DNA from: Candidatus Babeliales bacterium
Lineage (GTDB): Bacteria; Babelota; Babeliae; Babelales; JANWKD01
Reading direction: 5' to 3'
Length of the DNA stretch: 64,000 nucleotides
Assembly: GCA_963722255.1 (NCBI GenBank)
Contig: CAVRJO010000001.1
Location: 192,001-256,000, forward strand
Shown here one piece after another: positions 9,108-55,392 of this stretch (position 1 is its first letter; each line of letters opens with the position of its first letter). The notes under the pieces were generated by a model. It searched no databases. It was not told the origin of the DNA and saw nothing but the letters and a program-made list of their open reading frames with translations. The translations under genes and the position numbers were made by a program.

Positions 9108-9135
9108 ATGAGTACTTTCATTACAAGATGTTTTT
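8930..9135. repeat. Copy 1 of ~200-bp duplicated 5' cassette (UTR + signal peptide + N-terminus)
   Basis: Near-identical to 10687-10894, e.g. CCATTGTGATGAATAAATAATTTCTTCTTG..TTATTTTTTAGATTTACCGTAATTGATAAAGCATCATCATTATCT. Confidence 0.85.
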
Positions 9136-9166
9136 AAATTTCATATTTTCAGATTGTTGTGAACAG

Positions 9167-16965: not shown

Positions 16966-19245
16966 TTAACTCCTTTGCGAAAGTTTAAAATCTTCTCGAG
17001 GTTCAATGCCTAAAAGCAGATAGATTTCAGAAGCATACAAGGTTTCTTTTTCAAATAAATTATTTGCGAGCTTTTCTAACTTATCTCTATGCTGCATCAA
17101 AAGAGCTTTTACCTTTTCGTAGGATTGCGATAAAAGTTTTTGAATTTCCATATCAATGCGTTCTGCAGTTCTTTGAGAGTAGCTATAATCCCCACGTCTT
17201 TGCTTATATACTACCAATCCCAATTCTTCAGTCATGCCATAACTGCACACCATATGACGTGCAATCTCAGTAGCTTTTTCAAAATCATTTGAAGCTCCCG
17301 TTCCAACTACATTAAATACGAGCTCTTCTGCAACACGACCGCCCAATAATACCATAAGCAACGCAAACATCTCTTCTTTAGTTTGCGAATGTTTTTCATA
17401 TTCAGGTAAAGAGTAGGTGACGCCTAACGCAAATCCACGTGGAATAATAGTTACTTTATGAAGTGGATCACAAAGATCCGGCATTAGAAGACGTACTAAA
17501 GCGTGACCAGCTTCATGAAATGCCGTAATTTTACGCTCAAGTTCAGTTAAAACCATCGTTTTTCGTTCTTCTCCGAGGGTAATTTTATCACGAGCTGCTT
17601 CAAAATCTGCCATGGTAACGGAAGTTTGAGAACTATTTTTGGTAGCATGCAAGGCAGCTTCATTAACAAGATTTGCTAAATCTGCGCCTGAAAATCCCGG
17701 TGTGCCACGAGCCACTTTAGATAAATCTACTGAACGATCCAACTTTATTGACTGTGCATGCACGCTTAATATTTTTTCTCGACTATAAAGATCTGGATAA
17801 GGGACTGCAACTTTTTTATCAAAACGACCGGCACGCACTAAGGCATCATCTAAAGATTCAGGCCTATTGGTTGCTCCAATTACAATAACCGAGCTATCAT
17901 CTGAATTAAATCCATCCATTTCTGCAAGAAGCTGATTCAATGTCTGTATGTGTTCTCGATTACCACCACCATCACTATCTGAGTCCCTGTGCATACCAAC
18001 AGCATCAATTTCATCAATAAAAATGATACTTGGACTATGCTTACGAGCTTCATTAAACAGTTCTCGAACTCTGCTAGCACCAACCCCAACATATTTTTCT
18101 ACGAAATCTGATCCATTTATTATAAAGAATGGACAATTTGCTTCTCCGGCTATAGCTTTTGCTAATAATGTTTTTCCATTTCCTGGATCACCGTGCAGTA
18201 AAACACCATGCGTAATTTTTGCTCCTAATCTCTTGTAATGTTCAGGTTTTTTAAGAAACTCAACAATATCTTTTAGCTCTTCCTTTGTCTCCTGCATTCC
18301 AGCAATGTTCTCAAAGGTGCATGTTACTTGATTAGGGACAAACATAGTACTATGATTCTTATTGCCTTGTTTTTTTAATGCTTGAAGCATAAGCTTATAA
18401 GCTTCTTCAATATCTTGCATAATGGTTATAGTCTGCTTTTTCCTTATGGTAATTCTAACAGCCTTGTTAATTAAATTGGCTAAATCAGAACCGGAAAAAC
18501 CTGCTGTATTTTTCGCAATTTTTTCAAGGTCAACATCCCATCCTAATCTAATATTTTTAGTGTGTATGCTAAGAATCTTTTCACGGCTTTTGGTATCTGG
18601 ATAAGGAACTTCAATTTTTTGATCAAATCTTCTTAATAACGCTTTGTCTAAAATTTCAGAATTATTAGTGGCTGCAATAACCAAAACGGGCGCAACATCG
18701 CCTGTTTCAAATCCATCCATTTCAGTTAATAATTGATTAAGCGTTTGCACCAATTCAGTATCAGAATAAGAGGTTCTTTGACGTCCAATACTATCAATCT
18801 CATCAATAAAAATAACACAAGGTGAACGGAAACGAGCCTCAGCAAAAAGATCTCGAACTCGCGCTGCTCCTACACCAACATACATTTCAATAAATTCCGC
18901 ACCCGATACACTAAAAAAATAACAGTTTGCCTCACCTGCAAGAGCTTTGGCAAGAAGCGTTTTTCCATTTCCGGGCTCACCAACTAATAATATACCTCGT
19001 GGAAATTGTGCACCAAGTTCCTGATATTTTTTGTAATTTTTTAAAAAGTCTACAACTTCCCTTAATTCTTGCTTAGCTTCATCAGCTCCTGCAACAGAAT
19101 CAAAATTGACCTTGATATCTGAAGGAGCATAAAGTCTTGCTGTATTTTGCATGAATTGAGAATCATGAACACAATTAGTAACCAATGAAATGAAAAATAT
19201 ACAAATATAAAATATATTTCTAAACAAATAACTTATTTTGTTCAT
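16966..19245 (-). CDS. ftsH: FtsH paralogue with two AAA+ domains and M41 protease, no periplasmic domain
   Basis: GEPGNGKT/IFIDEID and [15 protein letters not shown] modules; HEAGH; GGRVAEE; GASND. Confidence 0.9.
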   Translation of the reverse strand: MNKISYLFRNIFYICIFFISLVTNCVHDSQFMQNTARLYAPSDIKVNFDSVAGADEAKQELREVVDFLKNYKKYQELGAQFPRGILLVGEPGNGKTLLAKALAGEANCYFFSVSGAEFIEMYVGVGAARVRDLFAEARFRSPCVIFIDEIDSIGRQRTSYSDTELVQTLNQLLTEMDGFETGDVAPVLVIAATNNSEILDKALLRRFDQKIEVPYPDTKSREKILSIHTKNIRLGWDVDLEKIAKNTAGFSGSDLANLINKAVRITIRKKQTITIMQDIEEAYKLMLQALKKQGNKNHSTMFVPNQVTCTFENIAGMQETKEELKDIVEFLKKPEHYKRLGAKITHGVLLHGDPGNGKTLLAKAIAGEANCPFFIINGSDFVEKYVGVGASRVRELFNEARKHSPSIIFIDEIDAVGMHRDSDSDGGGNREHIQTLNQLLAEMDGFNSDDSSVIVIGATNRPESLDDALVRAGRFDKKVAVPYPDLYSREKILSVHAQSIKLDRSVDLSKVARGTPGFSGADLANLVNEAALHATKNSSQTSVTMADFEAARDKITLGEERKTMVLTELERKITAFHEAGHALVRLLMPDLCDPLHKVTIIPRGFALGVTYSLPEYEKHSQTKEEMFALLMVLLGGRVAEELVFNVVGTGASNDFEKATEIARHMVCSYGMTEELGLVVYKQRRGDYSYSQRTAERIDMEIQKLLSQSYEKVKALLMQHRDKLEKLANNLFEKETLYASEIYLLLGIEPREDFKLSQRS

Positions 19246-24500: not shown

Positions 24501-26404
24501 AGTTGCAGCGCATTTTGGTAATAGGTTGACTCTGCATCCTGCAAATTTGCAACTGTTTTTAATTGCAGCAATCTATCGCCATTTTGCAATGCTTCATACG
24601 CTTGACGTAAAGACATTAAAAGATCAACTGCAACAGATAGATTATTATTAAGGCGTTCAATATCTACCGATTGGGGCAATAAGGGATTGTTTGTTCTTAC
24701 CGCCTTATAGCTTGCTAAAGCATCTTGATAATACCCATAAACGGCTTGATACAGTTGTAATAAATCTGAAAATAGCTGACTTGCTTGATCCGAAATTAAC
24801 GTCCCATCAAGACTATTGCTGTAATTCAAATAAGCTTCGATATTCGTTTTATTGCTACTTTCAAACTTATTAAATAGTTCTCCAGCAGTCTTAAGCGCAT
24901 AGTTACTTTCAAGATCTGATAAAATAATTAAAACTTTATTAGCATCAAGAAGATCCGCTCCTTGTTCAAAAAAAGTTTGAGCCTGCTTGTAATATGTAAT
25001 CGTTTTATTAGAATCACCCGATCGCTGCATTATTTTTGCTTGTGCCAATGCCGCAAGAGCATCTGATAAATTTTTTGATAAATTCAAATTTTCTTGAGCC
25101 TGCGCTCCTTCTCCTGCTTGCGTAAAGTAAGAAGCCGCTTGCTTATAATATTCAATAAGTTTGGTAATACTAGCAGTATTGTCTTGAGCCATTTGCAAAC
25201 TCTTTAACAAAGATTGTGCGCTATTTACATACAGTATCGCCATAGCAGTATTAATCAGATTTATATCTTCCTTGACTGTTTTATTTGATTGCGACATTAC
25301 TGACAATTCACTCATAAGTCCATTATAGAACGCAAGCGCATAAGCACGTTGCTGTTCTGTAGGATTAGTCATTGTATTTGCTAACGTTTGTAATGCATTT
25401 TTGTAAACATTAAAGGTTATTTGAATCTTTTTCTTCCAATAATCATTAACTAACGTTGCTTGCTCATTAGCATCAGTAAAATATTTTTTTATCTCATTTT
25501 GTACTACTCCATCATAACCATACCGCACCAAAGCAATGTCTTTAGGATTGTTTGTACCAAGCAATCGTATAACCGTATCACTTAATAGTTTATAATAGTC
25601 ATCACCCAACTTTTTATTGTGTAATGCTGCTACTTGATCATAGGTTCTATCTAATAAAAAATTACCTATATTTTTTAAAGAGGCAATTAACAAACTATTA
25701 GAATCATTCACATCAATTGAACCAAACGAACTATAAACCTTAAATGCTAAAGCTGCAACAGACTGCCATTGCTGAACAATTGCATCTACTTTTGATACAT
25801 CATAGGGCTTTTTATAGGTTTCTAGACCAAAAAGCTGCATAGCTTGTAGCGCTTTAGTGAAAGAACCATATATTTTTTCAATCCCTTCAAGTTCAGCTGC
25901 CATTCTTTTTTGATATGCCTGCTGCGCCAGCTGCACTTTTTTTTCTTCTTCAGCCTGCTTTGCTAATGCTTCTTTATTTTCTACTGCTTGTTGTGAATTT
26001 AAGTAGTTTGTTAACTGTTGATCGACATCAATAAACACTAAAGAAACCAACTGTTTTATGTTTTGTTGAGCAGTTGTACTAATCGAAGAAATCTGTTCTG
26101 CTGCATCCAATTTTTCAATAAGATTTGTACTCTGAGTTTTTGGCTCTAAGGGCTTTATTGCTTCAAGAGCTGTTGAATAAATCTTATCAATTTTGCTTTC
26201 TACACCATTAAGCGAAACAAGCCATGTTTTTTTTACAGCATCGGGTAGAGGAGTAAGTTTGGATAACAGATCAGCTACTATTTTCTTTTCAGTTTGATAC
26301 GTCGTTTGTAAATCCTGCTCAGCAGAGGTTACCGGATATACCGTAGAATAAAATGTAAACCAACCAATTATCCCTATACTGACTGCCATCATTCGCTTCA
26401 TCAT
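21533..26404 (-). CDS. Very large secreted alpha-helical (TPR-like) protein
   Basis: 1623-aa ORF, signal peptide, coiled coil, recurring A..YY..A..YF helices. Confidence 0.75.
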   Translation of the reverse strand: MMKRMMAVSIGIIGWFTFYSTVYPVTSAEQDLQTTYQTEKKIVADLLSKLTPLPDAVKKTWLVSLNGVESKIDKIYSTALEAIKPLEPKTQSTNLIEKLDAAEQISSISTTAQQNIKQLVSLVFIDVDQQLTNYLNSQQAVENKEALAKQAEEEKKVQLAQQAYQKRMAAELEGIEKIYGSFTKALQAMQLFGLETYKKPYDVSKVDAIVQQWQSVAALAFKVYSSFGSIDVNDSNSLLIASLKNIGNFLLDRTYDQVAALHNKKLGDDYYKLLSDTVIRLLGTNNPKDIALVRYGYDGVVQNEIKKYFTDANEQATLVNDYWKKKIQITFNVYKNALQTLANTMTNPTEQQRAYALAFYNGLMSELSVMSQSNKTVKEDINLINTAMAILYVNSAQSLLKSLQMAQDNTASITKLIEYYKQAASYFTQAGEGAQAQENLNLSKNLSDALAALAQAKIMQRSGDSNKTITYYKQAQTFFEQGADLLDANKVLIILSDLESNYALKTAGELFNKFESSNKTNIEAYLNYSNSLDGTLISDQASQLFSDLLQLYQAVYGYYQDALASYKAVRTNNPLLPQSVDIERLNNNLSVAVDLLMSLRQAYEALQNGDRLLQLKTVANLQDAESTYYQNALQLFKKADLLYAANQELNKFVPSFFLNKVTETPFNFEILAQRYIAKSSIELAGQITQYVEIELAYYINAYNRNQFLPLTFQNFLTSKLSQLAKSKDAVEKLFVEAQTNEKKLLAMTYADWVPKNVKGIYTSSASQQWDQLLQQYISLYHLGKIEAKAAFINAVNEYAENYKKYVTVNPELGLAMLWYQQFILRINDNEEEEAVALKQKIDKLLEVSYGDIQGLLSAIVNQANLLTTATIDQEKVIIWAEQIDQALDQQKNILTSVGISLTPEQRTNCMMLEKEGKSETVLYTYITLKKTIELPNLILKLANLYNQVGDHYFNQKNYKIAYSAYSSARQRYTDAGQQITPQFIRRLALSNTLYLASLYRDLVIPQGQVSVAGMQVPESYELQLYGQSVPSDISKGFPNLDFLKTDPTKTTDFLINLAVELYIYNKINDPEKFTSLMPLVSLKYDELKINPVFTALDDNQKIAFVTMIGFAGKMKALFQERAAKKSMNFVLQQKADKQFVLYIYSLPIPRIVGTKNYYPRYPAVIVYYSWAATLFKPGPEDETISVGQASLPHGNDQQEYDAMVTKQVMTYLSEGYSYQEQLTKLQKSDAWKNLIKSNKKDMAVVLDSYSELKASVDTLFNQMISYYTVPLANDLVSKTNKNYKPIHTLIGVTYKNWGDTLKNFLVGDPLSFNYVDILKDILQKYIVAITTYNLDSSLYADIAVNHNFAGNLLVEQGKYFDSISYFYTAASLSKRIQPQTLEVQKTIDHYYLNYLSALTKGSTLKMGQFQKALTEPITIADTGETINFNDLLIKYLSKGSSAEAISAEEASTMEDLRNLVLDALIFYNVTNSYITQGISNIDAPSILTWLALDDKTIEKVHDSALELLTTFSKKNNIAFDTIGSVTLMMNRTNFPDGKDFVAMINTGFSLFENKVKSSSDTFNRAVGYSAIAQFALKLYEAFSYLFMYTFYGEISADAIKKSLKPSIDARTNDILSPSKLYIG

Positions 26405-26477: not shown

Positions 26478-28226
26478 TTATGAAACTTTAAATTGATCAT
26501 TATACATTTCTTTGATTTCCTCAGGTGTCGTTGATTGCTCTGCTTTTTTATCAAGAACATAATCAATAAAACGTGGGAAACGTAATGCGTAGCCTAAACT
26601 AGTTTCAGTTTTAGCTGCAGTATGTAGTGGAGACAAGGTAATTTCATCAGCAAGAATAGAACACACAATTTCAGGAGCTACCCAAACATCAGGATAAAGT
26701 TCCTTTGGACATTCAACATTGTTTGGCTTATGATCTACGGCTAATGCATCAGATTTTTTTTTCAACTCTTTCCATCCATCATCCTTTAAGCCTGTTCCAA
26801 TTTTGGCTATTGTTTGAAAACAGTCTCTATGAGGATTATAGATTCCTACTAAAAAAGCACCTATACCCAATGAAGAACGTCGACCTTTGCCTTGATAATA
26901 ACCTAAAACAACACAGTCTATTGTGTCTTCAACATGGCTATTTACCATCCGCTTGAATTTGATCCAGTTGAAATTTCTTTTACCGGCCTGGTATACGGAA
27001 TTATCTTTTTTAACCATTATTCCTTCAAGCCCAGAATCTATATTTTTTAAAAAATAGTCTTTTAGTTCTTGGGCCGAATTAATGCTGACCTCCGGAATCA
27101 CGTGTATTACCGACCCTTGATAATTTTTTAAAATCTCTAGCAATCTATCTCTACGTTCATGATGAGTTTCATTAATTAATTCTTTGCCATTCAAATAGAG
27201 AATATCAAAAACGTAGAGCTGCAATGGGAATTCGGTAACCGCTTCCTCAATACCATGCTTCCTTTTTCTTTTTACGGTCTCTTGAAACGGAACAAAACTT
27301 CCTGTATTAGGATCATATACAATAGCCTCACCTTCACAAATCATTGTTTTGACAGGCAATTGCAAGAATTCTGTAACCAAATCGGGAAACATTTCAGACA
27401 TATCTATAAGATTTCTTGAAAAAAAATGAACAACAGGATTCAACAAATCCGTTTTATCCAAATGAATCTGAAGTCTAAAGCCATCAAGTTTTGGTTGCGC
27501 GATGGAAGCACCAACGCGTTCAAAAATTGCTTCGGCAGTTGGCAAACGTTCTGCAGCTGCCATACGAATAGGAATACCGAGCTTACACTGTAATTTCTCA
27601 ATTCCTGCGATACCGTCTACTTTAATTGTTTTAGCAATATAACCAATATCAGCACATAGATTATATGCCTCTTCAATCTTTTTATGCAAACTTTTATCAC
27701 CGGTTTCCATCCAAGAAAGAGCATCAATGAGAGTCATATCAGAAAATCCAAGGCGCAATTTACCTAAAATAATGCGTACTACATATTGAGCTGACAAAGA
27801 ATCTAAATCTCGAAGCAACGCTAAAGTAAAAAGAGATCTTTCTTCCTGAGACCCGGCACCACTTAATTTTTCAAGATGCAATAATTTAGTATATACATCA
27901 ATTACCGACAATTTCTTTTCCGGCGTCCAATTTTTTGTTGCTATAACTAAACCTAAATCACCTAAACTCTTTGCTTTTTGTTCAATCTCTTCTTGACTAG
28001 ATTCTAAAAGCAAAGCAACTACTTTGAGCAAGCTTTTCTCAGCCATATTAAATTGCGTTCCACCTTGATATGAAGGCCTAACAAGACCAAGCGACAGGTT
28101 ACAAATAATTTCAGACTCATCTGCTGAAGTATCGTGTAAAAGCTCGGCTAATATTTTGGTGATTTCAATACGAGATGAAACATGGCCAATTTTTTCAAAT
28201 GCCTGTGCTACCTTAGTAAAATCCAT
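26478..28226 (-). CDS. lig: ATP-dependent DNA ligase (archaeal/eukaryal type)
   Basis: N-terminal DNA-binding domain (LGKLRLG), KLDGFR, EGE, FDILY, EGIMVK, WIKFK, LRFPRF; probable start MDFTKV at 28226. Confidence 0.93.
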   Translation of the reverse strand: MDFTKVAQAFEKIGHVSSRIEITKILAELLHDTSADESEIICNLSLGLVRPSYQGGTQFNMAEKSLLKVVALLLESSQEEIEQKAKSLGDLGLVIATKNWTPEKKLSVIDVYTKLLHLEKLSGAGSQEERSLFTLALLRDLDSLSAQYVVRIILGKLRLGFSDMTLIDALSWMETGDKSLHKKIEEAYNLCADIGYIAKTIKVDGIAGIEKLQCKLGIPIRMAAAERLPTAEAIFERVGASIAQPKLDGFRLQIHLDKTDLLNPVVHFFSRNLIDMSEMFPDLVTEFLQLPVKTMICEGEAIVYDPNTGSFVPFQETVKRKRKHGIEEAVTEFPLQLYVFDILYLNGKELINETHHERRDRLLEILKNYQGSVIHVIPEVSINSAQELKDYFLKNIDSGLEGIMVKKDNSVYQAGKRNFNWIKFKRMVNSHVEDTIDCVVLGYYQGKGRRSSLGIGAFLVGIYNPHRDCFQTIAKIGTGLKDDGWKELKKKSDALAVDHKPNNVECPKELYPDVWVAPEIVCSILADEITLSPLHTAAKTETSLGYALRFPRFIDYVLDKKAEQSTTPEEIKEMYNDQFKVS

Positions 28227-28314
28227 AGAATTCCAATTCTTTTGACGATTAAAAAAGTTTTCACGGTAATAAACACAATAAACAATACTACTCAAGCACA
28301 GGAAATAAAATAGA

Positions 28315-28896
28315 TTAAATTTTAGCTTTTTTTGAGGCAAAGTAACGTCTAATATTTGTTTCATGTCGCCATAAACCCCAAATAGATATAAAAAAAGCAA
28401 GCATAATAAAATCAGTATCACAAGGCATTAAAGACCATACGCAATAGGGAACTGCTAATAATCCCACTACACATGAGATACCCATATTATTCGTTACAAG
28501 CGCTACTGGAAGCCAAACAAATACAAGATAGATAAGCACACTTGGATTAATTGCCAATAAGATGCCTAATGATGTTGCAACTCCTTTGCCGCCTTTTCCT
28601 TGGAGAAAAAACGAGATACTATTACCCAGCAACAAAGCCATTGCCCCTGCAATAATAGAGATGGAATCTGCCTTACAAAACTGTAGGACTCTAAGGAATA
28701 AAAAGGCCTTTAAGGAATCAATACATAACACAATAATAAAGTAGCGTAATCCCAGTATGCGACCAACATTTGTCGCGCCTATGTTACCTGAACCATATTT
28801 TGTAATATCATTGATACCGGCTTTATACGCAAGTAGCCATCCTGAAGGAATAGCGCCTATGCAATAACCAAGAAATGCAGATAGTAAATAGACCAT
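28315..28896 (-). CDS. plsY: Glycerol-3-phosphate acyltransferase
   Basis: GAIPSG, GSGNIGATNVGR, KGGKGVATSLG, RHETNIRR. Confidence 0.93.
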   Translation of the reverse strand: MVYLLSAFLGYCIGAIPSGWLLAYKAGINDITKYGSGNIGATNVGRILGLRYFIIVLCIDSLKAFLFLRVLQFCKADSISIIAGAMALLLGNSISFFLQGKGGKGVATSLGILLAINPSVLIYLVFVWLPVALVTNNMGISCVVGLLAVPYCVWSLMPCDTDFIMLAFFISIWGLWRHETNIRRYFASKKAKI

Positions 28897-28996: not shown

Positions 28997-30100
28997 TAGC
29001 GCCCCGCTTTAATTTCCGCACAAATGTGCTATACTATCCTTAAAATTTTAAAAAGGAGAAGCGAATGGCATTCAGTCTTGATTTAAGAGAACGAGTAATA
29101 GGGGCAGTTGATGGTGGCATGCATATAGACGAGGCCGCTAAAATATTTGATGTCAGCAGAAGGGTAATTTATGAATGGTTAGAATTACGAAAAAAAACTG
29201 GCGAGCTCAAACCAAAAACAGGTTATCAAAAAGGCCATAGCCACAAAATTACAGACTTGGAAAAATTCAAAGCATTTGCAAATTCTAATAAGCAATGTAC
29301 ATCCCCACAAATGGTTATTAGATGGGAGCAACTTACAGGCGTGAAGGTCTCTGAAGACGTGATGCTACGGATGCTTAAAAAGATTGGTTTTACATCTAAA
29401 AAAAAACTTTTAGCTACGCCGAAGCAAATGCAAAAACCCAAACGAATGCGTATCGCATTTAAATTTAGAAGATAATTAAAGACAATTCATGATCCAGCAA
29501 AAATCATTTACTCTGTATGACAACACTGGAAATTGTACTGATAATGAGGTCGATTCTTACTGGGTTTTAATGGGCACCAGCAAGGAATAGAACGTTCGCC
29601 AATGCGCAAAAACCATAAGACTCGAATCGTTATTAATTTGACTTTGATCCGTTATAAAACTATCACTGGCCATTTGCACTGTATAATTCTATTAATTCGT
29701 GATAAAGCCTTCTAGTAACGTAGCGCAATCAATTTTGTCTTGGCAAGCCAACGATTAATATAGCGATAATTCTGCTGCTCATTTATGAAACTTTACGTAG
29801 AACACTGTTGTTGGCTCCGTGTGTTAGAACTGCGAATGAGTACTTATGCTGCTAAATCTGAAACCAATCCTTTGCTAGCTTCCATAAATCTAAAAAAATA
29901 ATTCTAGATCTTATTCGATAGCACTTGTGCAGAGTTATATTATTACCCCCACATTCACCTGATTTTAACCCAATTGAGCATCATTGGACGGCTGTCAAAA
30001 ATGCAATCAGAAAAGCTGTTTGAAAATATTAAAGATTTTTATGAAGCAGCTGAATTTATGTCATTGAGTGTTAATGTGCGCTGCTTAACGAGGGGCGCTC
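28997..30100 (+). mobile_element. IS630-family insertion sequence, decayed
   Basis: Imperfect terminal inverted repeats TAGCGCCCCGCTTTAATTTCCGCACA / TGTGCGCTGCTTAACGAGGGGCGCTC flanked by TA at 28995-28996 and 30101-30102. Confidence 0.85.
29065..30050 (+). pseudogene. IS630 transposase: intact HTH ORF, disrupted DDE domain
   Basis: MAFSLDLRERV HTH ORF 29065-29475; A-run near 29398-29406 (typical frameshift site); remnant LPPHSPDFNPIEHHW near 29942-29990; stops and indels in between. Confidence 0.85.
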
Positions 30101-30132: not shown

Positions 30133-31407
30133 TTACGAAATAACACAAAAGGCGTTTTTATCCAATATAACATGCTCTTTTAAACAAGAATAAAGAACAG
30201 GATCTTTTATCATCTCACGATAACCGGCTTGAGCCTCAGGGCTGTTTGAAAAACTCAATGTATCTGAATATGCCGCTTTTTTGCCTATCATAACAAAGAG
30301 CAAAGCATATTCTGCTTTTAAATTTTTTAATGAATTTGCTAATGAACGATAGGTTAAAAACCAAGTAGCCAGCTTTTTTTTACATAAAATCTGGTGATCC
30401 GAAACAACTTTTCCCTCTTTGTCAAACACATAGGGACCCGATTCTTCGACACATTTAAAAAATCGAGCTTCTTTTTCCGGCTTTCTTACATTGTAACGTA
30501 TAAGTTCATTATCCCAGGTACTTGCTAAAAGCAATTTTGAATTTAATGAAAATGATACCGTAGAAACATGAGCATTCTTTGCAACAAATTTAGTAATACG
30601 CTTTTGTGTTTCGACTGAATAAATATGGATAGCTGCGTGGAGCTCTCCTTGAGAGACAAGAGCAATCTTTGATCCATCAGGAGAAAGGCAAATATCTTTT
30701 ATAGTATGAACATAACGAGCAATTTTATCATAAATAATTTGGCCGGTTCTTACATTAATAATCGTTACCCCTCTACCTAACTCGGCATACGCACAAAGCG
30801 ATTTGTCTGCTGAAAATGCTAGAGCTACAATTTTTTTATTCTTAATCGATTCTCTTACCTCATCGTAAGCTTTAGTCTTTAAATGCTTAGAAACAATTTT
30901 TTGTCCAAGCAACACAGAAAGCTCATAAGGAATATCAAAAGAAGCAACCCAGTTAAAAACATCTTCAATAGAGTTATGATCCGCTTCTGCAATGATAACT
31001 TCTGAAAGATAATTTAAAAAAAAGTTTATAAGGGGTTCACAGTTTAAAAAGTTTACAGTATTTAATAATTTAATACAGCGAACTATTGTTCTATCATTTT
31101 CTTGAAAAAATCTATCTTTTAATAAATTTTTTTGTTCATGAGCATCGTGACATTTAGCAACAATATCAAGAAGTGGTAAAAGAGCTATAAAGTTTTTTGA
31201 TTTTATGGGTACAAAAAATTTATCATATTGAATAACATCAGAATCATCAATGACATGTAAGAATGTTTTTGACGAATTGATACTCATTTTATGAATACTA
31301 AATTCTTTTGCGTCTTTGGTTACGGTCGTTATATAATCCATGGTGTAACTAGCATTAAATACCAGCAACAAAGAAGTTACCTGTATATATTTTAGCAAAA
31401 ATTTCAT
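30133..31407 (-). CDS. Secreted Skp1/BTB-like + WD40 protein
   Basis: Signal peptide; LLNTVNFLNCEPLI; AFSADKS, LSPDGSKIA, FSLNSKLL. Confidence 0.72.
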   Translation of the reverse strand: MKFLLKYIQVTSLLLVFNASYTMDYITTVTKDAKEFSIHKMSINSSKTFLHVIDDSDVIQYDKFFVPIKSKNFIALLPLLDIVAKCHDAHEQKNLLKDRFFQENDRTIVRCIKLLNTVNFLNCEPLINFFLNYLSEVIIAEADHNSIEDVFNWVASFDIPYELSVLLGQKIVSKHLKTKAYDEVRESIKNKKIVALAFSADKSLCAYAELGRGVTIINVRTGQIIYDKIARYVHTIKDICLSPDGSKIALVSQGELHAAIHIYSVETQKRITKFVAKNAHVSTVSFSLNSKLLLASTWDNELIRYNVRKPEKEARFFKCVEESGPYVFDKEGKVVSDHQILCKKKLATWFLTYRSLANSLKNLKAEYALLFVMIGKKAAYSDTLSFSNSPEAQAGYREMIKDPVLYSCLKEHVILDKNAFCVIS

Positions 31408-34193: not shown

Positions 34194-36017
34194 CTATTCT
34201 GTTTTTTTCAATATTGCAAAGGCTTCTTGTGGCAATTCAACGTTACCAACTTTTTTCATCTTCTTTTTACCTTCTTTTTGTTTTTCAAGAAGCTTCTTTT
34301 TACGGGTAATATCGCCGCCATAACATTTTGCAATAACATCCTTACGTAAAGCAGAGATTGATTCTCGAGCAAGAATTCTTGATCCTATTGCAGCTTGAAT
34401 TACAACTTCAAAAAGTTGTCTCGGGATTACTTTACGTAATTTTCCAACCATATCTCGCCCAATATAGTAGGCATTATCAGCATGAACAATAAGCGCTAAA
34501 GCATCAACAGGCTTACCACAAATCAATATATCCATTTTAACGAGTTCTGAAGGCTGATATCCTGCCTCTTCATAATCAAAACTAGCATACCCGGAACTTA
34601 ACGATTTAAGCTCATCATAAAAATTGGTTGCTACCTCATTTAAAGGCAAGATATATTTCAGGATAAGACGATCTTCAGTAAGATAGGACATATCTTTTTG
34701 TTCACCGCGTCTTTCTTGGCAAAGCTTTATAATGTTTCCCAAATATTGTTTAGGTAAAATAATGGTAGCATTAATTATAGGCTCTAAAATCTCATCAATT
34801 TTTTGTGGTTCGGGAAAATCATTAGGGTTTTCAATATCGATAATATCGCCCGTATGAGCAATCTTAACTCTATAACGAACACTTGGAGCTGTTACTATTA
34901 CTGTTACATCATACTCTTGCTCTAAACGCTGTTTAAAGACATCCATGTGTAAAAGGCCCAAGAATCCGCATCTGAACCCAAGCCCTAAAGCAGTTGATGT
35001 GGTCTTTTCTACCGTAACACTCGCATCATTTAACGTTAATTTTTCGATTGCATCTCTTAAAATTTCAAATTCAGAACTATCTACAGGAAAAATTCCTGCA
35101 AAAACCATTGGTTTTGAAGGTTTGAATCCGGGGAATGGTGTCACCTCTTTTTTGGCATGAAAAACAGTATCACCAACGCGTGCTTCACGAACTGTTTTCA
35201 TACCGGCAACTAAATAACCAACTTGCCCTGCATAAAGGGCTTCAACCGGCATTTCATCGGGGTACATAAGACCAATTTCAAGAACCTCATAGGTTCTATC
35301 TGTTTGGGCAAAGGTAATTGAATCTCCGACGCGAATGGTTCCATCTTTTATTGCAATTAAACAAATCACACCCTTGTATTCATTAAACCATGAATCAAAA
35401 AGCAATGCTTTAAGGGGTTGATCACTTTGCGATTTTGGCGCAGGCATACGCGTTACAATTGCTTCTAAAATGAGATCAATTCCGATTCCATTTTTTGCTG
35501 AAGCTAAAATATTTTCATCAATACCAATATCAAAGAGATTTTTTAACTCTTGAGCAACTGATGCAGGATCTGCAGCTGCCATATCAATTTTATTTATTAC
35601 AGGAACAATGGTTAAATCTTGGTCAAAAGCAAGATAAAAATTTGCCATAGTTTGAGCTTGAACACCTTGTGCAGCATCTACAAGTAATAAGGCTCCTTGG
35701 CATGCATAAAGCGATCGAGAAACTTCATAACTAAAATCAACATGCCCCGGGGTGTCAATTAAATTAAGGAGGTACATCTGCCCTTTATATTCATAAAACA
35801 TCGAAGCAGTTTGAGCTTTTACGGTGATCCCACGTTCTTGCTCAACCTTTAACTTATCCAAAAACTGTTCATGACGTTTTCTATCGGTTAAGGTACCGGT
35901 TACCTCAAGCAAACGGTCTGCCAACGTTGATTTACCATGATCAATATGAGCAATAATAGAAAAGTTTCTAATATGTTCAGGTTTAAAATCTTTGAGATTG
36001 ATTGTTTTCAAATCCAT
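34194..36017 (-). CDS. lepA: Elongation factor 4
   Basis: IRNFSIIAHIDHGKSTLADR, DTPGHVDF, NKID, AKCYGGDITRKKKLLEKQKEGKK. Confidence 0.97.
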   Translation of the reverse strand: MDLKTINLKDFKPEHIRNFSIIAHIDHGKSTLADRLLEVTGTLTDRKRHEQFLDKLKVEQERGITVKAQTASMFYEYKGQMYLLNLIDTPGHVDFSYEVSRSLYACQGALLLVDAAQGVQAQTMANFYLAFDQDLTIVPVINKIDMAAADPASVAQELKNLFDIGIDENILASAKNGIGIDLILEAIVTRMPAPKSQSDQPLKALLFDSWFNEYKGVICLIAIKDGTIRVGDSITFAQTDRTYEVLEIGLMYPDEMPVEALYAGQVGYLVAGMKTVREARVGDTVFHAKKEVTPFPGFKPSKPMVFAGIFPVDSSEFEILRDAIEKLTLNDASVTVEKTTSTALGLGFRCGFLGLLHMDVFKQRLEQEYDVTVIVTAPSVRYRVKIAHTGDIIDIENPNDFPEPQKIDEILEPIINATIILPKQYLGNIIKLCQERRGEQKDMSYLTEDRLILKYILPLNEVATNFYDELKSLSSGYASFDYEEAGYQPSELVKMDILICGKPVDALALIVHADNAYYIGRDMVGKLRKVIPRQLFEVVIQAAIGSRILARESISALRKDVIAKCYGGDITRKKKLLEKQKEGKKKMKKVGNVELPQEAFAILKKTE

Positions 36018-36155
36018 TTTGCAGCTATTTTCAGTTTAATTCATATAAAATAAATATTTTTTTAGCTCACAATGCTAATCTTTAATAGTGTACGCTATGG
36101 GCATATATTTGTAAAATAGGAAGAATTTAATCAATCTTACCAGCATATGGGGTAA

Positions 36156-36230
36156 TCAACCTTTTGTAACGACATCTTTGGCTAGATCCATCGCTGTTCT
36201 GCCATCTTCGCTTCTTTGAGTAAGATGAAT
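36156..36230 (-). pseudogene. Possible ankyrin-repeat gene remnant
   Basis: Translates HLTQRSEDGRTAMDLAKDVVTKG*; GxTAxDLA motif, no start. Confidence 0.4.
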
Positions 36231-36267
36231 ACTTTAATTATTCTTATCAAAATTTATGATAACAAAA

Positions 36268-36310
36268 ATGGTATTTAAGTAATCGAACGATTCGTTAACC
36301 TAAATACCAT
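36268..36310 (-). terminator. Terminator after rpsT
   Basis: ATGGTATTTA...TAAATACCAT stem, T-run on minus strand. Confidence 0.6.
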
Positions 36311-36327
36311 ACTATATTTTATTAGAA

Positions 36328-36603
36328 TTACTGAGCGCGAGCGGCAGCAGCAACTTTTTTAGCTAATCTGCTAACTTTGCGAGAAGCTGTTTTTGGATGG
36401 AGTGTATTTTTGCCCTTAGCACGAGACAATTGAGATTCAGCATCTTTTAATAATGCCTTTAATTGTTCAATATCTGCGCCTTGCTCTAGAGAAACTAAAA
36501 CCTTTTTTACAGAGGTTTTAATTGATGATCTACGAGCTAAATTTTTTTTAGCCTTAAAAATATTTTTTTTTGCTTGTCTTTTAGCTGACTTTGTATTTGC
36601 CAT
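36328..36603 (-). CDS. rpsT: 30S ribosomal protein S20
   Basis: MANTKSAKRQ, LHPKTASRKVSRL. Confidence 0.95.
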   Translation of the reverse strand: MANTKSAKRQAKKNIFKAKKNLARRSSIKTSVKKVLVSLEQGADIEQLKALLKDAESQLSRAKGKNTLHPKTASRKVSRLAKKVAAAARAQ

Positions 36604-37059: not shown

Positions 37060-39711
37060 TTAGGTAAGTTTAAAATCCTGACGAGGCTCAATACCAAGAA
37101 GTTGATATATTTCACTCGCAAAAAGCGTTTCTTTATCAAAAAGATGATTTGCCAAAGTATCCAATTTATCTCTATGCTGAATCATCATAGTTTTAACTTT
37201 TTCATAGGCATTGGCCAAAAGTTTTTGAACTTCTGCATCAATCCGCTCTGCTGTCTTCTGAGAATAGGTATATTCACCATGTTGTTGCTTATAAACTACC
37301 AATCCAAGCTCCTCAGACATTCCATACGAACAAATCATTTTACGCGCTATATCAGATGCCTTTTCAAAATCATTAGAAGCACCGGTTCCTATTACGTTAA
37401 AGACCAGCTCTTCAGCAACACGGCCTCCTAAGCAAACCATAATCACTGCAAACATTTCCTCTTTGGTTTGCGTATACTTTTCTCGTTCAGGCAATGAATG
37501 TGTTACACCCAAAGCTCTTCCTCTAGGAATAATGGTCACCTTATGAAGCGGATCACTGAGATCAGGAAGCAAAAGTCGTACCAAAGCATGCCCAGATTCA
37601 TGAAATGCCGTAATTTTACGCTCTTCTTCTGAAAGCACTATAGTCTTCAACTCTTTGCCCAACATGATCTTATCGCGCGCTTCTTCAAAATCGTTAATAG
37701 TGACCATAGATTGATCATTATCTCTGGAAGCATGTAAAGCCGATTCATTCACAAGGTTTGCTAAATCAGCTCCTGAAAAGCCCGGTGTTCCACGTGCAAC
37801 CTTCTTTAAATCAACCGAAGGATCTATGATAATATTTTTAGCATGCAGTTCTAAAATTTTCTCACGGCTTTGTAAGTCAGGGTAAGGAATCTCAACCTTT
37901 CTATCAAAACGGCCGGCACGCAAAAGTGCAGGATCAAGAGAATCGGGTCTATTGGTTGCAGCAATAACTATAACCGAGCTCGTTGCTGAATCAAAACCAT
38001 CCATTTCAGTGAGCAGCTGATTGAGCGTCTGGTTACGTTCATCATTGCCACCCCCGTTTTTCCCGGAGCCTCTATGGCTTCCCACTGCATCTATTTCATC
38101 AATAAATATAATACTAGGATTATGCTTTCTTGCCTGGTTGAAGAGATCACGAACACGAGAAGCACCCACACCAACATACATTTCTACAAATTCTGATGCA
38201 CTCACATTGAAAAATGGACAATTAGCTTCCCCTGCAACGGCTTTGGCGAGTAATGTTTTACCATTACCCGGATCACCAATAAGCAAAACACCACGGGTAA
38301 TCTTAGCGCCCAATCGCTTATATTTTTCAGGATTTTTAAGAAATTCTACAATATCTCGTAGCTCTTCTTTGGCTTCTTGCATGCCTGCAACTTGGTCAAA
38401 ATTACATTTAACCTGGGTAGGCATAAACATTTTAACGTTACTTGCACCCTTCACACCTTGTTGAGAATTACTCATGGGATTATTGTACGATTTAAGCATA
38501 GTCTTATGCGCATCTTCAATATCGGCCATCGTGACCTTATCTTGATTTTTTTTAGAAGCATTAATTGCGGCCTTATTCATTAAATTAGCTAAATCAGCTC
38601 CACTATAGCCAGCGGTTTCTTCAGCAATTTTTTTCAAATCCGCTTCCTTGTCAAGCTTAATAGCCTGAGCATGTATCTTTAAAATCTCTTCTCTGCTTTC
38701 AGAATCTGGAAAAGGGACATCAATGCGGCGATCAAATCTACCCGGCCTTACAAGCGCTTTATCAAGAACATCCGGCATATTGGTAGCTGCTAATACAACC
38801 ACAGAAGCTCCATTGGCTGTTTCAAAGCCATCCATTTCAGTTAAAAGTTGATTAAGCGTTTGCTCGCGCTCATCATGCCCGCCTCCAAAGCCACTGCCTC
38901 GTTGACGCCCAATTGCATCTATTTCATCAATAAACACAATGCTCGGTGCATTTTTACGAGCTTGGGCAAAAAGATCACGAACACGTGCAGCACCTACCCC
39001 CACAAATACTTCGATAAAATCCGATCCGGTAATACTAAAAAATGGGCAGTTAGCTTCACCTGCAACGGCCTTAGCAAGCAATGTTTTACCATTACCAGCT
39101 TCACCAACAAGTAATACTCCACGAGGAATTTTTGCCCCTAAACGTTTGTATTTTTCGGGATTTTTAAGAAAATCAACAACATCTTTAAGTTCATTCTTTG
39201 CATCATGAGCCCCGGCCACCGATTTAAAATTTACTTTAATAGCTGAAGGCATAAACATTTTTGCTTTACTTTTACCCATACTAAAAAGAGTACTCCCACC
39301 ACTTGAGCCACGAGACTGGCGGAAAAAGTACCAAACCAGCAAAGGCATAAAAAGGAATGAAAATAGGAGTAAAAGATGCCAAAAATTAAATTGACCTGTT
39401 ACAGGAGCTATAGAAAATTCAACGTCGTGTTGACGCAAGAGCTCTAAATTATTAGGATTTTCCGCTACCACTGTTTCAAAATGAGTATTATCGTTCAGAA
39501 CCCCAAAAACGTCCTGACCATTGATATGTACCGATTTAACCTCGTTTTTTTCAACAGCTTTCAAAAATGCTGAATAGGTCAGACGCTTCACCTGACGGGT
39601 ATAATCGGTTAATTTCGTTAATAATGCTATAGATATTACAAAAAAGATAATTGCGAAAATAAGGTTCTTTGGTCCGCGCACAAAAGGGTTATTCTTTAGT
39701 TTTTGTCTCAT
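37060..39711 (-). CDS. ftsH: Membrane-anchored FtsH with two tandem AAA+ domains and M41 protease
   Basis: TM-periplasmic (YSAFLKAV)-[10 protein letters not shown]...[15 protein letters not shown]...RAGRFDR; HESGH; probable start MRQKL at 39711. Confidence 0.93.
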
Positions 39712-39972: not shown

Positions 39973-41247
39973 TCAACAACTTGACCATGCAGGATAAGAA
40001 CACCGATGCTTTTCATCAGTTAGAAATGTTTCTTCTTTGGTAATCATATTATAGAGAGCAATTCTACATGATTTTCCCTGCTCAATAGAATAGACTAAAT
40101 AGTTACCACAGGGCGACCAACAACATTCATCCTTATTGCCGGGAGTAAAGGTTATTTGTTGATCTTCTTTTTTTGCTAAATCATACCCAAATATCTGAAT
40201 TGTTGTACCAACTAATCGATGATAAGCAACTTTACCATTTTTTTCTGAAAAATTTGGAGCAGCCCCTGGGGTTATTTGTTCTAACTTATTGCTTTCATCA
40301 TGCCAATAATAAACATACGGAACTCCTTTTTCAGCATCTGAACAAAAAATAATATCGCCATTATCACGTACATTTGGCGATATATTATTTCCATCATTGT
40401 GCGTTTTTCTTTCAATAACTTTCTTTTTGTTTTTTTTATCAATAAAGCAACGATAGAGCTGGCTTGTTCCTTGATGCGTTGCACAATAAACGACATTTTG
40501 CCCATTGCTTGAAAATGATGGAAGACTCGTTATACCATTAACATTTGATACAATCTTTTTCTTGCCCTGCATATTTGTTGACATAAGCCGAACATTTGAG
40601 GGAGTCACTTCAGAAAAAAGCAGTAAAGGATTTTTTGAACTTTTATTCCAACGAGGCGCTAATAGTTTACCTCCTTTTACCAGGCAATAAGCATCATCGG
40701 CAAAGGGAGTTTGAATATATAGATCAGATCCCTTATGAGAGCCTTCAATTTTTTCACAACAATAGGCAATCTTAGAAGAAAATATCCCTTCTTGTCCTGT
40801 TAAAAGCTTCCATAAAGCATCAGCCAACAGATGCCCATTTTTACCTATATTTGAAAGATCAAGGTGCATTCGTTTGCCACAATACATCTGAGCTTGCATA
40901 GAATCATAGACACGCCATTCAAGCGTATCATTCGATTTCATCTGTAAAAATACCACCATCATATACCCTTCTTGTGCTAAATTTTTTAGAGCCGATTTTG
41001 AAGGAACTTTATGAAATTTTCTTAAAAGACAGTCAAAGCCACTTTTTTTTTGTTTTGAACATGATAAATCATTAAACGCAACTGACACAAAATCATCCAA
41101 TGATTCAGGAAAATCAATTAACCCAAAAAGCAACTTCATCTTTTCTTGTTGTTGATTTTCAAGCTGAACGACAACATCGGTTGTTACATTGGAGGTATAA
41201 ACCGGTATCACTAGATTAAAAAAAAGAAAAAATAAAAGTTTTTTCAT
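39973..41247 (-). CDS. tolB: TolB-like beta-propeller protein
   Basis: H..AD.L...LTG..GIFSSKIAY; PRW, PSFSSNG, WSPCG, PAWS repeats. Confidence 0.85.
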   Translation of the reverse strand: MKKLLFFLFFNLVIPVYTSNVTTDVVVQLENQQQEKMKLLFGLIDFPESLDDFVSVAFNDLSCSKQKKSGFDCLLRKFHKVPSKSALKNLAQEGYMMVVFLQMKSNDTLEWRVYDSMQAQMYCGKRMHLDLSNIGKNGHLLADALWKLLTGQEGIFSSKIAYCCEKIEGSHKGSDLYIQTPFADDAYCLVKGGKLLAPRWNKSSKNPLLLFSEVTPSNVRLMSTNMQGKKKIVSNVNGITSLPSFSSNGQNVVYCATHQGTSQLYRCFIDKKNKKKVIERKTHNDGNNISPNVRDNGDIIFCSDAEKGVPYVYYWHDESNKLEQITPGAAPNFSEKNGKVAYHRLVGTTIQIFGYDLAKKEDQQITFTPGNKDECCWSPCGNYLVYSIEQGKSCRIALYNMITKEETFLTDEKHRCSYPAWSSC

Positions 41248-41260
41248 GAATACCCATCTC

Positions 41261-42088
41261 TTAAAAGATTATTGATAACTCTTTTTCTACCCATTGTTTG
41301 GGAAAATCATAGGTTAATAAAAAATTGCGTGCACTAATATCAAGCGCAATAGCATTAGATGATTTTTCCATACTAATATCTCGCTTGCCATCTTTGTGTA
41401 CAATCACACGAAATTCACAAACGGCAGTATCAGGTATATTGGTAGGTCTTTTCCATTTTTTTACTATATCTTTTTTTAAAATATCTTGCATCACAAAAAG
41501 TTCTCGTTCATCATTACCGATAATAACGGTTTCTTGTTTTGGTTGTTGCTGTTCAGCCGTAGCTGTTGTAGAAACATCATGAGTTGGGCTTGCCTTTTCA
41601 CAAATTTTAGGTTGAACCGATTTTTCAATCTTTTGCGCGATCGGCTTTTCTTGCTTGGCAGGCGGTAATTTTTTTTGTGTACTATTTTTTTTGACTGGAG
41701 GTACAACGGCCTTTTTCTTGGAAATCGTCGCACTATCCTTTTTTCTTTGCATTATGGTACTATTTTTTTTAGCAGGCAATGGCTTGATCTGTTTTGGGAC
41801 AGCTTTTTTTTCTTCCCTTACGGATTTTTGAACTATATCTTTTTTTAAAGTTGGAGCATTGTGTAACTTTTGTTGCGGTGGCACTGCCTTGAGAAAAGGT
41901 ACAAACGACACTGAAGCATTATTGCTTTGTGTATTTACCACCACCGAAACTCGTGATTGTGTTAGGATAAAAAAAAGCACAAGAATAGTTATATGCGCAA
42001 GAAGACAACATAACAATAGTTTGGAAAAAAAAGTAACTTTTTTAGACAGCTTTACCGCCACTAGGTTTTTCAGTTGCAATTGCAACAT
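41261..42088 (-). CDS. TolA/TonB-like protein
   Basis: N-terminal TM with His, Lys/Pro-rich linker, C-terminal W..P...SS...ALD; position in tol cluster. Confidence 0.75.
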   Translation of the reverse strand: MLQLQLKNLVAVKLSKKVTFFSKLLLCCLLAHITILVLFFILTQSRVSVVVNTQSNNASVSFVPFLKAVPPQQKLHNAPTLKKDIVQKSVREEKKAVPKQIKPLPAKKNSTIMQRKKDSATISKKKAVVPPVKKNSTQKKLPPAKQEKPIAQKIEKSVQPKICEKASPTHDVSTTATAEQQQPKQETVIIGNDERELFVMQDILKKDIVKKWKRPTNIPDTAVCEFRVIVHKDGKRDISMEKSSNAIALDISARNFLLTYDFPKQWVEKELSIIF

Positions 42089-42503
42089 CCTTTACACCTC
42101 CAACGACTTTAATACAATCAATAACACTGGTTAGACACCCCGCACAGGACTGGCTATCAGGCTTTATCCAAACTCTCGTTTTTTCTTTATTTGGCATCTG
42201 AGCCAATTTTTGTTGTATCTCAGATCCTAACATTTCTAAGGTCACCATTTTGTTATTACAATAAATAGTATCTTTTTTATCAATTGTTACAACTAATTCT
42301 TGTTGATCCTTTCCACCTTCTTGCGCCTGCCCTTTAGGCAGATCTATTTTTATTGAATTTTGAATCATTGGTGTTGTAACCATAAAAATTATCAGCAGTG
42401 TTAAAGCAGTATCAATTAATGGCGTTAACGTAATTTCCGGCTGAGAAATTGCTCTTCTTTTTCTTCTTTGTAATCCTCGCATAATCAAATCCTTATCGTG
42501 CAA
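42042..42503 (-). CDS. tolR: TolR/ExbD protein
   Basis: EITLTPLIDTALTLLIIFMVTTP..IKIDLP. Confidence 0.88.
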   Translation of the reverse strand: MHDKDLIMRGLQRRKRRAISQPEITLTPLIDTALTLLIIFMVTTPMIQNSIKIDLPKGQAQEGGKDQQELVVTIDKKDTIYCNNKMVTLEMLGSEIQQKLAQMPNKEKTRVWIKPDSQSCAGCLTSVIDCIKVVGGVKDVAIATEKPSGGKAV

Positions 42504-43179
42504 AAAGTTTTTGAACTATGAAGATAAACTTATCTGCAAGAATAAACAGTTGCCGCTCAATAACTCGAATTTCACTAGTTAAATAATGGTACATCACCAA
42601 TGCAGGAATTGCCACTAAAAGGCCTGCAAGCGTAGTAATTAATGCTTCAGCAATACCCGGAGCAACCGTCGTTATATCGGCTGATTGTTTTTCACTTATT
42701 CTAATAAAAGCATGAACCAATCCCCAAACAGTACCAAAAAGACCCAACAAGGGAGAAACCGATGCGCTGGTAAAAAGGAAAGGTAAATAGGATTCTTCAG
42801 TCTGCAAAATATCATCAACACTCTGGTCTATTTGTTGTTGCAATGAATTTATTTCTCGTTCATTTAATGAATTTTTATTTGGATCAATCTCAAGATACAT
42901 TTTTAAAGAACCAAAATTTTTGCGCAAAAAATAACCAGGCAATGTATCATTGAATGCTAATGCTAAACTACGTAATTCCTCAAATGTAGTTATTGAAGAC
43001 AAACGTTTAGCTAAAGTTTTTAATTGATTTTTTTTTATTCTCAGAAGAATAACTTTATACAAAAATATCGTCCAACATATAATTGAAAGACCCAAGAGTA
43101 TGAGCAAAACCAATTTCGTTACATAATCCGATTGTGAAACTAACATCCACAATGAATTACCATGCATTGCATATTCCAT
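42493..43179 (-). CDS. tolQ: TolQ/ExbB proton channel protein
   Basis: SPLLGLFGTVWG, VAPGIAEALITTLAGLLVAIPA. Confidence 0.92.
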   Translation of the reverse strand: MEYAMHGNSLWMLVSQSDYVTKLVLLILLGLSIICWTIFLYKVILLRIKKNQLKTLAKRLSSITTFEELRSLALAFNDTLPGYFLRKNFGSLKMYLEIDPNKNSLNEREINSLQQQIDQSVDDILQTEESYLPFLFTSASVSPLLGLFGTVWGLVHAFIRISEKQSADITTVAPGIAEALITTLAGLLVAIPALVMYHYLTSEIRVIERQLFILADKFIFIVQKLFAR

Positions 43180-55285: not shown

Positions 55286-55334
55286 TGAGACCCCCCGCAC
55301 TAGTTAATTATGGCAAAAATATAACTCTTTTTAC

Positions 55335-55374
55335 AGAAGGCCTTCTTATTAATTATTAAACAAGAAGGCCTTCT
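55335..55374. promoter_or_regulatory. Hairpin of two self-palindromic AGAAGGCCTTCT copies between the Npt genes
   Basis: Copies at 55335-55346 and 55363-55374. Confidence 0.5.
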
Positions 55375-55392
55375 TTTCATTGAATAACTAAA

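Follow-up and report, generated by a model that had tools for sequence, protein, structure and literature searches.

What does a second ATPase module do in a membrane protease that is ordinarily built with one? The question is raised by a gene that we call ftsH-A, located in a 64,000-nucleotide (nt) stretch of contig CAVRJO010000001.1 (positions 192,001 to 256,000; assembly GCA_963722255.1), here called the window, from a Babeliales (Dependentiae) bacterium whose genome assembly amounts to 1.62 megabases and is 93% complete. An earlier note, made from the DNA letters, had taken its product for an FtsH with two tandem AAA modules, and our analysis bears this out. By homology and orthology ftsH-A is FtsH, with a variant architecture in which two full AAA units, D1 and D2, precede the M41 protease domain, not the canonical single AAA module per chain. 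We further propose, with a probability of roughly two in three (0.68), that this housekeeping double-AAA FtsH arose by one tandem duplication, that its two rings are stacked and both active, and that the second ring brings a functional gain.

Two AAA modules and an intact protease domain in one chain

The reading frame of ftsH-A is uninterrupted from an ATG. A longer alternative would start at a TTG at 39765; the ATG is supported because the methionine it encodes is at least 90% conserved among the 58 sequences of our alignment A1. The encoded protein matches FtsH_ext (PF06480) at residues 18-104, then two copies of AAA (PF00004), each followed by AAA_lid_3, and finally Peptidase_M41 (PF01434) at 692-871, the last with E 7.5e-64 over profile positions 2-191 of 191; against the FtsH model TIGR01241 it scores 1181 bits (cut-off 600) in two stretches. 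The earlier note had described the N-terminus as two transmembrane (TM) segments enclosing a periplasmic domain, and this description is confirmed by the FtsH_ext match, by hydropathy windows at about 10-30 and 111-131, and by helices at 14-39 and 110-135 in an AlphaFold2 (AF2) model. Every motif that it named was found where it had put it: in D1, GEAGNGKT from residue 203, FVGVG from 236, IDEID at 261-265 and RPGRFD from 322; in D2, GDPGNGKT from 479, YVGVG from 512, IDEID at 537-541 and RAGRFD from 598; and HESGH at 704-708 in the M41 domain.

The two modules have diverged, as the note had also said: 173 of 264 residues are identical (66%, E 4e-129), and nucleotide identity is 68% over 786 nt, values that point to an old duplication. 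The duplicated unit runs from a 'KxKMFMP' segment, which normally follows the second TM segment (TM2), to the end of the lid, and in a self-alignment the D1-D2 linker leads into the copy of that post-TM2 'KMFMP' segment.

Motif counts over 101 aligned double-AAA orthologues are uniform in both modules. The Walker A GK[T], the Walker B DE, the pore-loop V-G, the sensor-1 Asn and both Arg fingers are invariant in D1 and in D2 (101/101), and the E-x-DGF inter-subunit motif is invariant in each module in alignment A1. The pore-loop aromatic residue is Phe in 99 orthologues and Tyr in 2 in D1, and Tyr in 86 and Phe in 15 in D2. The protease site, intact as the note had held, is present as HE[AS]GH in all 101. 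Distances between the two Walker A motifs are 270-279 residues throughout, and D1 and D2 of any one protein are 56-74% identical. Mean pairwise identity is 0.81 for the large subdomain of D1, 0.73 for that of D2, 0.55 for M41, 0.41 for the N-terminus and 0.365 for the linker. Judged by these alignments, D1 ranks first in conservation among the parts of the protein and is no decaying duplicate, ftsH-A appears to be under strong purifying selection, and both modules appear to be kept equipped for ATP binding and hydrolysis, with their Arg fingers, DGF motif and aromatic pore loop.

Origin of the second module and its place in Babeliales

The best 120 matches among 5.8 billion protein clusters include 103 with two Walker A motifs and one HExGH site, about 880 amino acids (aa) long and 64-89% identical, and their source names are FtsH of Candidatus Babeliales, Babeliaceae or Dependentiae. 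We sampled the phylum with 151 genomes, searched with ftsH-A at a match cut of E<=1e-50. A full-length double-AAA FtsH, in one open frame of 880-980 aa, is present in 29 of them, and two further genomes (G112, G094) have a double form cut by contig ends, for a total of about 31; most of the others carry a single-AAA FtsH of about 610-640 aa. By family, the double form was found in 2/2 genomes of f1, 7/7 of f2, 2/3 of f4, 5/7 of f8, 11/20 of f9, 1/1 of f18 and 3/55 of f3.

In 21 of the 29 genomes with the full-length form it is the sole match, and the genome that carries the window has no FtsH-family match over the TIGR01241 cut-off beyond two double-AAA genes, ftsH-A and the paralogue ftsH-B. 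Gene order around ftsH is informative as well, because the succession TolB-like, ftsH, rpsT is common to three single-AAA and three double-AAA genomes (the present one included), which indicates that the double gene occupies the position of ordinary ftsH as its orthologue, altered in place. ftsH-A is the housekeeping, membrane-anchored FtsH, and in many genomes such a protein is the only FtsH match.

The descent of the modules was followed in a quick tree of 122 AAA modules and a careful tree of 42; two long branches of the quick tree (P0230, first of three modules, and P0295, first of two) were used for no claim. In the quick tree all Babeliales modules, whether D1, D2 or single-AAA, form one clade (99, starred), separate from those of FtsH in other lineages. 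A phylogeny of D1 against D2 had been proposed in the earlier note, and the careful tree gives it: D1 (96/99, starred) and D2 (92/91) form separate clades, both within a Babeliales clade (100/97, starred). A topology holding D1 and D2 together is not rejected, with p-AU (approximately unbiased test) 0.316 for groups chosen with knowledge of the first tree. The careful tree shows matching sub-clades among its D1 and among its D2 modules, and hence no trace of gene conversion between D1 and D2. A tree of the M41 domain, made to see whether the double forms are monophyletic, has 19 of its 35 inner branches open. The module trees fit a single duplication inside Babeliales, separate from the ancient D1/D2 pair of Cdc48; one tandem event, in some ancestor belonging to the order, would have copied the AAA+ module with its short post-TM2 segment.

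The second double-AAA gene that the earlier note had reported is indeed in the window. ftsH-B encodes two AAA modules and M41, is 70% identical to ftsH-A, and has one N-terminal hydrophobic segment and no FtsH_ext domain; its D2 is the sister of the D2 of ftsH-A (96/98, starred, careful tree). In its D1, three residues are deleted in a Gly-rich loop, with RPGRFD cut to R--RFD. By these comparisons ftsH-B is a recent, lineage-specific copy of the whole double gene, and its D1, given the lost residues, may be weakening. In a genome of the same genus (G130) the search with ftsH-A returned a single match at the cut used, and a second copy was not seen.

Other Babeliales genomes hold further FtsH-like genes. 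A second, N-terminally short FtsH of about 536-567 aa (AAA-M41) was seen in G008 (L012), G027 (L011) and G138 (L015/L016). In both G008 and G027 it closely follows the full-length gene on the same strand, and the G138 copy descends from the D2-M41 portion of a double gene (100, starred); tandem short and full-length copies of this kind are a plausible raw material for a fused double form. An 889-aa FtsH-like protein in G040 (L013, G040:C1:830800-834400) has two intact AAA modules with the HExGH site replaced, and has the look of a double-AAA form without protease activity, analogous in concept to plant FtsHi. In G111, FtsH-like genes lie within 10 kilobases of one another (L014, G111:C8:67300-77200): one encodes a 796-aa AAA-AAA-M41 protein without the periplasmic domain, the same as P0191 in the parts compared, and another an 893-aa protein whose N-terminal half has a different, degenerate P-loop and is followed by one AAA-M41 unit.

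Proposed arrangement and work of two rings

The protease ring of FtsH, AFG3L2 and YME1 has six-fold symmetry. If the C-terminal M41 domains of ftsH-A make this usual ring, six chains would give two stacked AAA rings, the D1 ring next to the membrane and the D2 ring on the protease. A substrate would pass through the D1 pore, then the D2 pore, and into the proteolytic chamber, powered by 12 ATPase sites, with both rings hydrolysing ATP and both gripping the substrate. By analogy with ClpAP, a second ring would improve grip and processivity when proteins are extracted from the membrane or stable domains are unfolded. Stacking, activity of both rings and a functional gain together make up our best reading of the gene, and relatives with three and four modules, described below, fit stacking and not a planar ring.

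Structural comparison weakly favours a p97-like stacking of D1 on D2. The full-length AF2 model has domain-level confidence, with a mean predicted local distance difference test score (pLDDT) of 78.8 and a linker disordered at 411-423 (pLDDT <50). Taken singly, the modules are close to solved structures in VIA-align: D1 (146-403) matches the ATPase domain of Thermus FtsH, 1iy2, with Z 30.2 and a root-mean-square deviation (rmsd) of 2.1 over 245 residues, and FtsH and PAN ATPase domains in general with Z about 30 and rmsd 1.6-2.1 Å, while D2 with M41 matches substrate-bound AFG3L2 (6nyy_E) with Z 37.5 and rmsd 2.5 Å over 448 residues. Solved FtsH chains found by sequence have one module each, which matches D1 and D2 as two stretches. 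Residues 158-670, by comparison, align colinearly and in one stretch with D1-D2 of p97 (199-707), Cdc48 and VAT (E 1e-109 to 1e-114). For a model of D1-D2 alone, with a predicted template modelling score (pTM) of 0.48, the best two-domain matches are substrate-processing p97 protomers (TMq 0.66-0.67, rmsd 6.6-7.7), among them 9yrc_B with TMq 0.66, TMt 0.64 and rmsd 6.9.

Several observations weigh against two stacked working rings with a gain in function. Conserved motifs cannot tell ATP hydrolysis from mere ATP binding in D1. Inter-domain confidence in the AF2 models is low, with pTM 0.50 at full length and 0.48 for D1-D2 alone, and VIA-align puts p97 on both domains only at rmsd 11-12 Å. About 120 of the 151 sampled Babeliales get by on a single-AAA FtsH, and the comparative data gave no signal that accounts for the retention of the extra ring: Lon was found in 151/151 genomes, usually with two matches, ClpP (PF00574) in only 1/151, whether FtsH is single or double, and ClpB in 122/151, including all the double-FtsH genomes checked except G038. 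Finally, the unfolding strength of ordinary FtsH, both its standing as a weak unfoldase and its force, is disputed, according to the available text of PMC9601784. Because this standing is debated, stronger unfolding by the double FtsH is best treated as hypothetical.

The alternative that survives best also has two stacked rings, with one working motor. The other ring would bind ATP mainly for hexamer stability or to control the entry of substrate, a role reported for NSF-D2 and, in some states, for p97-D1; in that case ftsH-A would unfold proteins no more strongly than ordinary FtsH does. Weakened first modules do occur in relatives, in keeping with this: D1 may be degenerating in ftsH-B, with its R--RFD deletion, the first modules of P0295, P0230 and P0233 are weak or have no Walker A, and the 893-aa protein of G111 gives one AAA-module match only. 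A ring kept for structure alone, however, usually loses some of the very residues (Walker B Glu, sensor-1 Asn, Arg fingers, pore-loop V-G) that are invariant in D1 of all 101 orthologues, where the pore-loop aromatic is also retained and D1 is better conserved than any other part of the protein. We therefore think a single motor unlikely, and prefer two active rings.

It is also conceivable that D1 and D2 of one chain are neighbours within a single planar AAA ring, built of six modules from three chains or of 12 modules from six. The low confidence in D1-D2 orientation (pTM 0.48-0.50) and the flexible linker at 411-423 would allow such a layout. It is hard to reconcile with a fully conserved M41 domain that makes a six-fold ring in all solved FtsH, AFG3L2 and YME1 structures, since a trimer leaves three protease domains; in addition, four-module relatives cannot tile a six-membered ring, and the module spacing of ftsH-A is colinear with the stacked D1-D2 of p97. 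We regard a planar ring as quite improbable, and return to stacked rings as the preferred arrangement. An assembly or annotation artefact (a collapsed or expanded repeat, or two neighbouring genes merged) or a decaying gene is barely credible, as we found nothing in its favour and, against it, a D1/D2 identity of only 68% at the DNA level, an unbroken frame, the same two Walker A motifs and HExGH site in 103 of the best 120 clusters, a full-length open frame in 29/151 genomes, and a 151-nt contig from a soil run that is identical to the window across the linker (38408-38558).

The earlier note had likewise judged an artefact unlikely, on the strength of the second paralogue; the paralogue does support that judgement, and more than 100 independent database clusters of the same form support it more strongly. 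Two soil DNA runs share small fractions (0.14 and 0.09) of the sampled window words; the soil-run pieces that match the window identically are 151 nt only, and none spans the whole of ftsH-A. No RNA run was among those listed for these words.

We also considered whether the extra ring makes up for a lost unfoldase or protease, and rejected the idea, which the counts of Lon, ClpP and ClpB given above do not support. ClpX was not found in the genome that carries the window, and AAA+ proteolysis across the phylum seems to rest on Lon and FtsH. In the same genome clpB (G000:C1:891863-894400, outside the window) lies in four pieces in different frames with three in-frame TGA codons, while the clpB frame of the same-genus genome G130 is intact (857 aa); the broken copy reflects either a pseudogene or sequencing errors.

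The window and the wider FtsH family

The features of the window are collected in the following table. A Tol block lies directly upstream of ftsH-A, and rpsT and lepA lie downstream, all on the strand of ftsH-A. Elsewhere in the window are two adjacent TLC ATP/ADP translocases, which fit the intracellular, protist-parasitic lifestyle described for the phylum in the literature available to us in part. Further accessory genes comprise three WD40/beta-propeller proteins, an ATP-dependent DNA ligase of eukaryote/archaea type and an IS630-type transposase helix-turn-helix fragment; this set, with the translocases, is typical of an intracellular energy parasite.

Features of ftsH-A and of the surrounding window (window positions; residue numbers are those of the ftsH-A protein)
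Feature	Position	Strand	Content and basis
ftsH-A coding sequence	37060..39711	(-)	883 aa + stop; TM / periplasmic domain / TM / AAA (D1) / AAA (D2) / M41
ftsH-A residues 1-135	39307..39711	(-)	TM1, periplasmic FtsH_ext, TM2; Pfam, hydropathy, AF2 helices
ftsH-A residues 146-410	38482..39276	(-)	D1 AAA module + lid; Pfam, motifs, alignment, VIA-align
D1 sites			Walker A 203-210, pore loop FVG 236-238, Walker B DE 262-263, sensor-1 N311, Arg fingers R322/R325
ftsH-A residues 411-433	38413..38481	(-)	D1-D2 linker; pLDDT, pairwise identity, self-alignment
ftsH-A residues 434-688	37648..38412	(-)	D2 AAA module + lid; Pfam, motifs, alignment, VIA-align
D2 sites			Walker A 479-486, pore loop YVG 512-514, Walker B DE 538-539, sensor-1 N587, Arg fingers R598/R601
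ftsH-A residues 689-883 + stop	37060..37647	(-)	M41 zinc metalloprotease domain, HESGH 704-708; Pfam PF01434
ftsH-B	16966..19245	(-)	paralogue, 759 aa, AAA-AAA-M41
TolQ	42493-43179	(-)	upstream block 39973..43179; Pfam MotA_ExbB/ExbD/PD40 scan
TolR	42042-42482	(-)	upstream block; Pfam scan
TolA/TonB-like	41261-42088	(-)	upstream block; Pfam scan
TolB-like	39973-41247	(-)	upstream of ftsH-A; Pfam scan
rpsT	36328-36603	(-)	downstream of ftsH-A (block 34194..36603)
lepA	34194-36017	(-)	downstream of ftsH-A
TLC ATP/ADP translocases	53861-56745	(-)	two adjacent genes; Pfam
Further accessory genes	7377-10864; 30133-31407; 26478-28364; 29065-29475	(-); (-); (-); (+)	WD40/beta-propeller, DNA ligase, transposase fragment
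Open reading frame	21533-26404	(-)	1623 aa, no Pfam match at E<=1e-5

FtsH chains with two, three or four AAA modules exist outside Babeliales, in other phyla. Among the best 120 cluster matches, four Walker A motifs occur in 12 and three in 4, and one more, P0023, gives five by regular expression and four AAA modules by hidden Markov model; Pfam finds AAA x4 + M41 in P0002 and P0019, the latter a cluster of 1047 member sequences, and AAA x3 + M41 in P0017 and P0109. Of 78 FtsH loci in GTDB species genomes, 9 encode four modules, 7 three and 60 one. The four- and three-module loci (L035-L051) belong to metagenome-assembled genomes of Bacteroidales, named Muribaculaceae, Sodaliphilus and others, and their Walker A motifs are 252-258 residues apart, with shorter linkers than in Babeliales, where the spacing is 270-279. 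Thermoleophilaceae is the name given to the members of a further three-module cluster (P0160), whose modules group with those of the two-module P0180, apart from all others (95, starred, quick tree). In an exhaustive search of 1.84 billion representatives, whose ranking favours multi-module proteins as the query has two modules, 22 of the best 150 had more than one AAA-module match and 17 were clean AAA(n)-M41 proteins. One metagenomic protein, P0161 (1428 aa), contains two complete AAA-M41 units with HExGH at 531 and 1249; either two entire FtsH units have fused in it, or separate genes were merged when genes were called.

In the quick tree the modules of each lineage group together, with starred support for P0210, G040x, P0249, P0160/P0180, P0162/P0167/P0168/P0226 and Babeliales, and with support of 94 for the Bacteroidales set. 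This lineage-wise grouping indicates that multi-AAA FtsH arose independently in several bacterial lineages, with at least five origins. The earlier note had allowed that the architecture might already be widespread and described; widespread it is, in databases and under the plain name FtsH, but no paper describing an FtsH with more than one AAA module was found in the literature searched, outside which most subscription-journal papers lie. A search of that literature for 'FtsH' with 'Dependentiae' found no paper, and the word FtsH is absent from the available portions of four Dependentiae genome papers (PMC6561590, PMC4776705, PMC4378268, PMC12172432). The double-AAA FtsH is apparently a conserved enzyme, widespread in databases and unstudied.

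A bolder proposal, which we advance tentatively and hold to be somewhat more probably wrong than right, is that FtsH has been rebuilt independently in at least five bacterial lineages into towers of two, three or four stacked active rings on one protease ring, that the two-tier form replaced the housekeeping enzyme in much of Babeliales, and that the number of tiers tunes pulling force and processivity. If it is true, the single and double orthologues at one Babeliales locus are a natural matched pair for the contribution of the second ring. A natural double-motor FtsH would be useful, being strongly selected, the only FtsH in many genomes, and accompanied by single-module orthologues at the same locus in sister lineages. 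It speaks to a question of the AAA+ field, namely what a second ring contributes in grip, processivity, unfolding power or reach from the membrane, at a time when the force generated by FtsH is, in the accessible part of PMC9601784, still argued. The parallel three- and four-module forms, seen in gut Bacteroidales and in other phyla, suggest that AAA+ proteases have evolved along a general path that has been overlooked.

Of the known systems, canonical FtsH, AFG3L2 and YME1 (MEROPS M41; TIGR01241; 3kds, 7vhp, 7tdo, 6nyy, 6az0) are the closest to ftsH-A. They have in common the TM-periplasmic-TM anchor, the classic-clade AAA fold with its aromatic pore loop and DGF motif, and the C-terminal HExxH protease of the M41 family, and ftsH-A occupies the single-AAA ftsH locus of its relatives. 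The difference lies in the number of AAA modules per chain, two complete ones in ftsH-A against one in the canonical enzyme, which is so described in the available text of PMC9601784. The likeness to Cdc48 and p97 that the earlier note had drawn holds for architecture and fails for descent. Like the type II classic-clade proteins Cdc48, p97, VAT and NVL, ftsH-A has two tandem classic-clade modules about 270 residues apart. Cdc48, however, has no protease, whereas ftsH-A is anchored in the membrane and covalently joined to one; no Cdc48-type N domain was among the Pfam matches of ftsH-A, which scores 463 bits against TIGR01243 (cut-off 803); and D1 and D2 appear to stem from a recent duplication of the Babeliales FtsH module and not to be orthologous to the D1 and D2 of Cdc48.

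The nearest published case that we found, going by the accessible part of its description, is Orf2971 of Chlamydomonas, the Ycf2 orthologue, an FtsH-related protein with two AAA+ domains of which the second is the more active (PMC9421593). It differs in being a very large plastid protein for chloroplast import and quality control, and no bacterial protease of TM-AAA-AAA-M41 form. In the way it probably works, ftsH-A has its counterpart in ClpAP, where two AAA+ tiers feed one proteolytic chamber, although ClpAP belongs to another AAA+ clade, is soluble and carries its protease on a separate chain. In ClpA, as far as the available text of PMC7568338 goes, the stronger motor is D2, and processivity requires D1.

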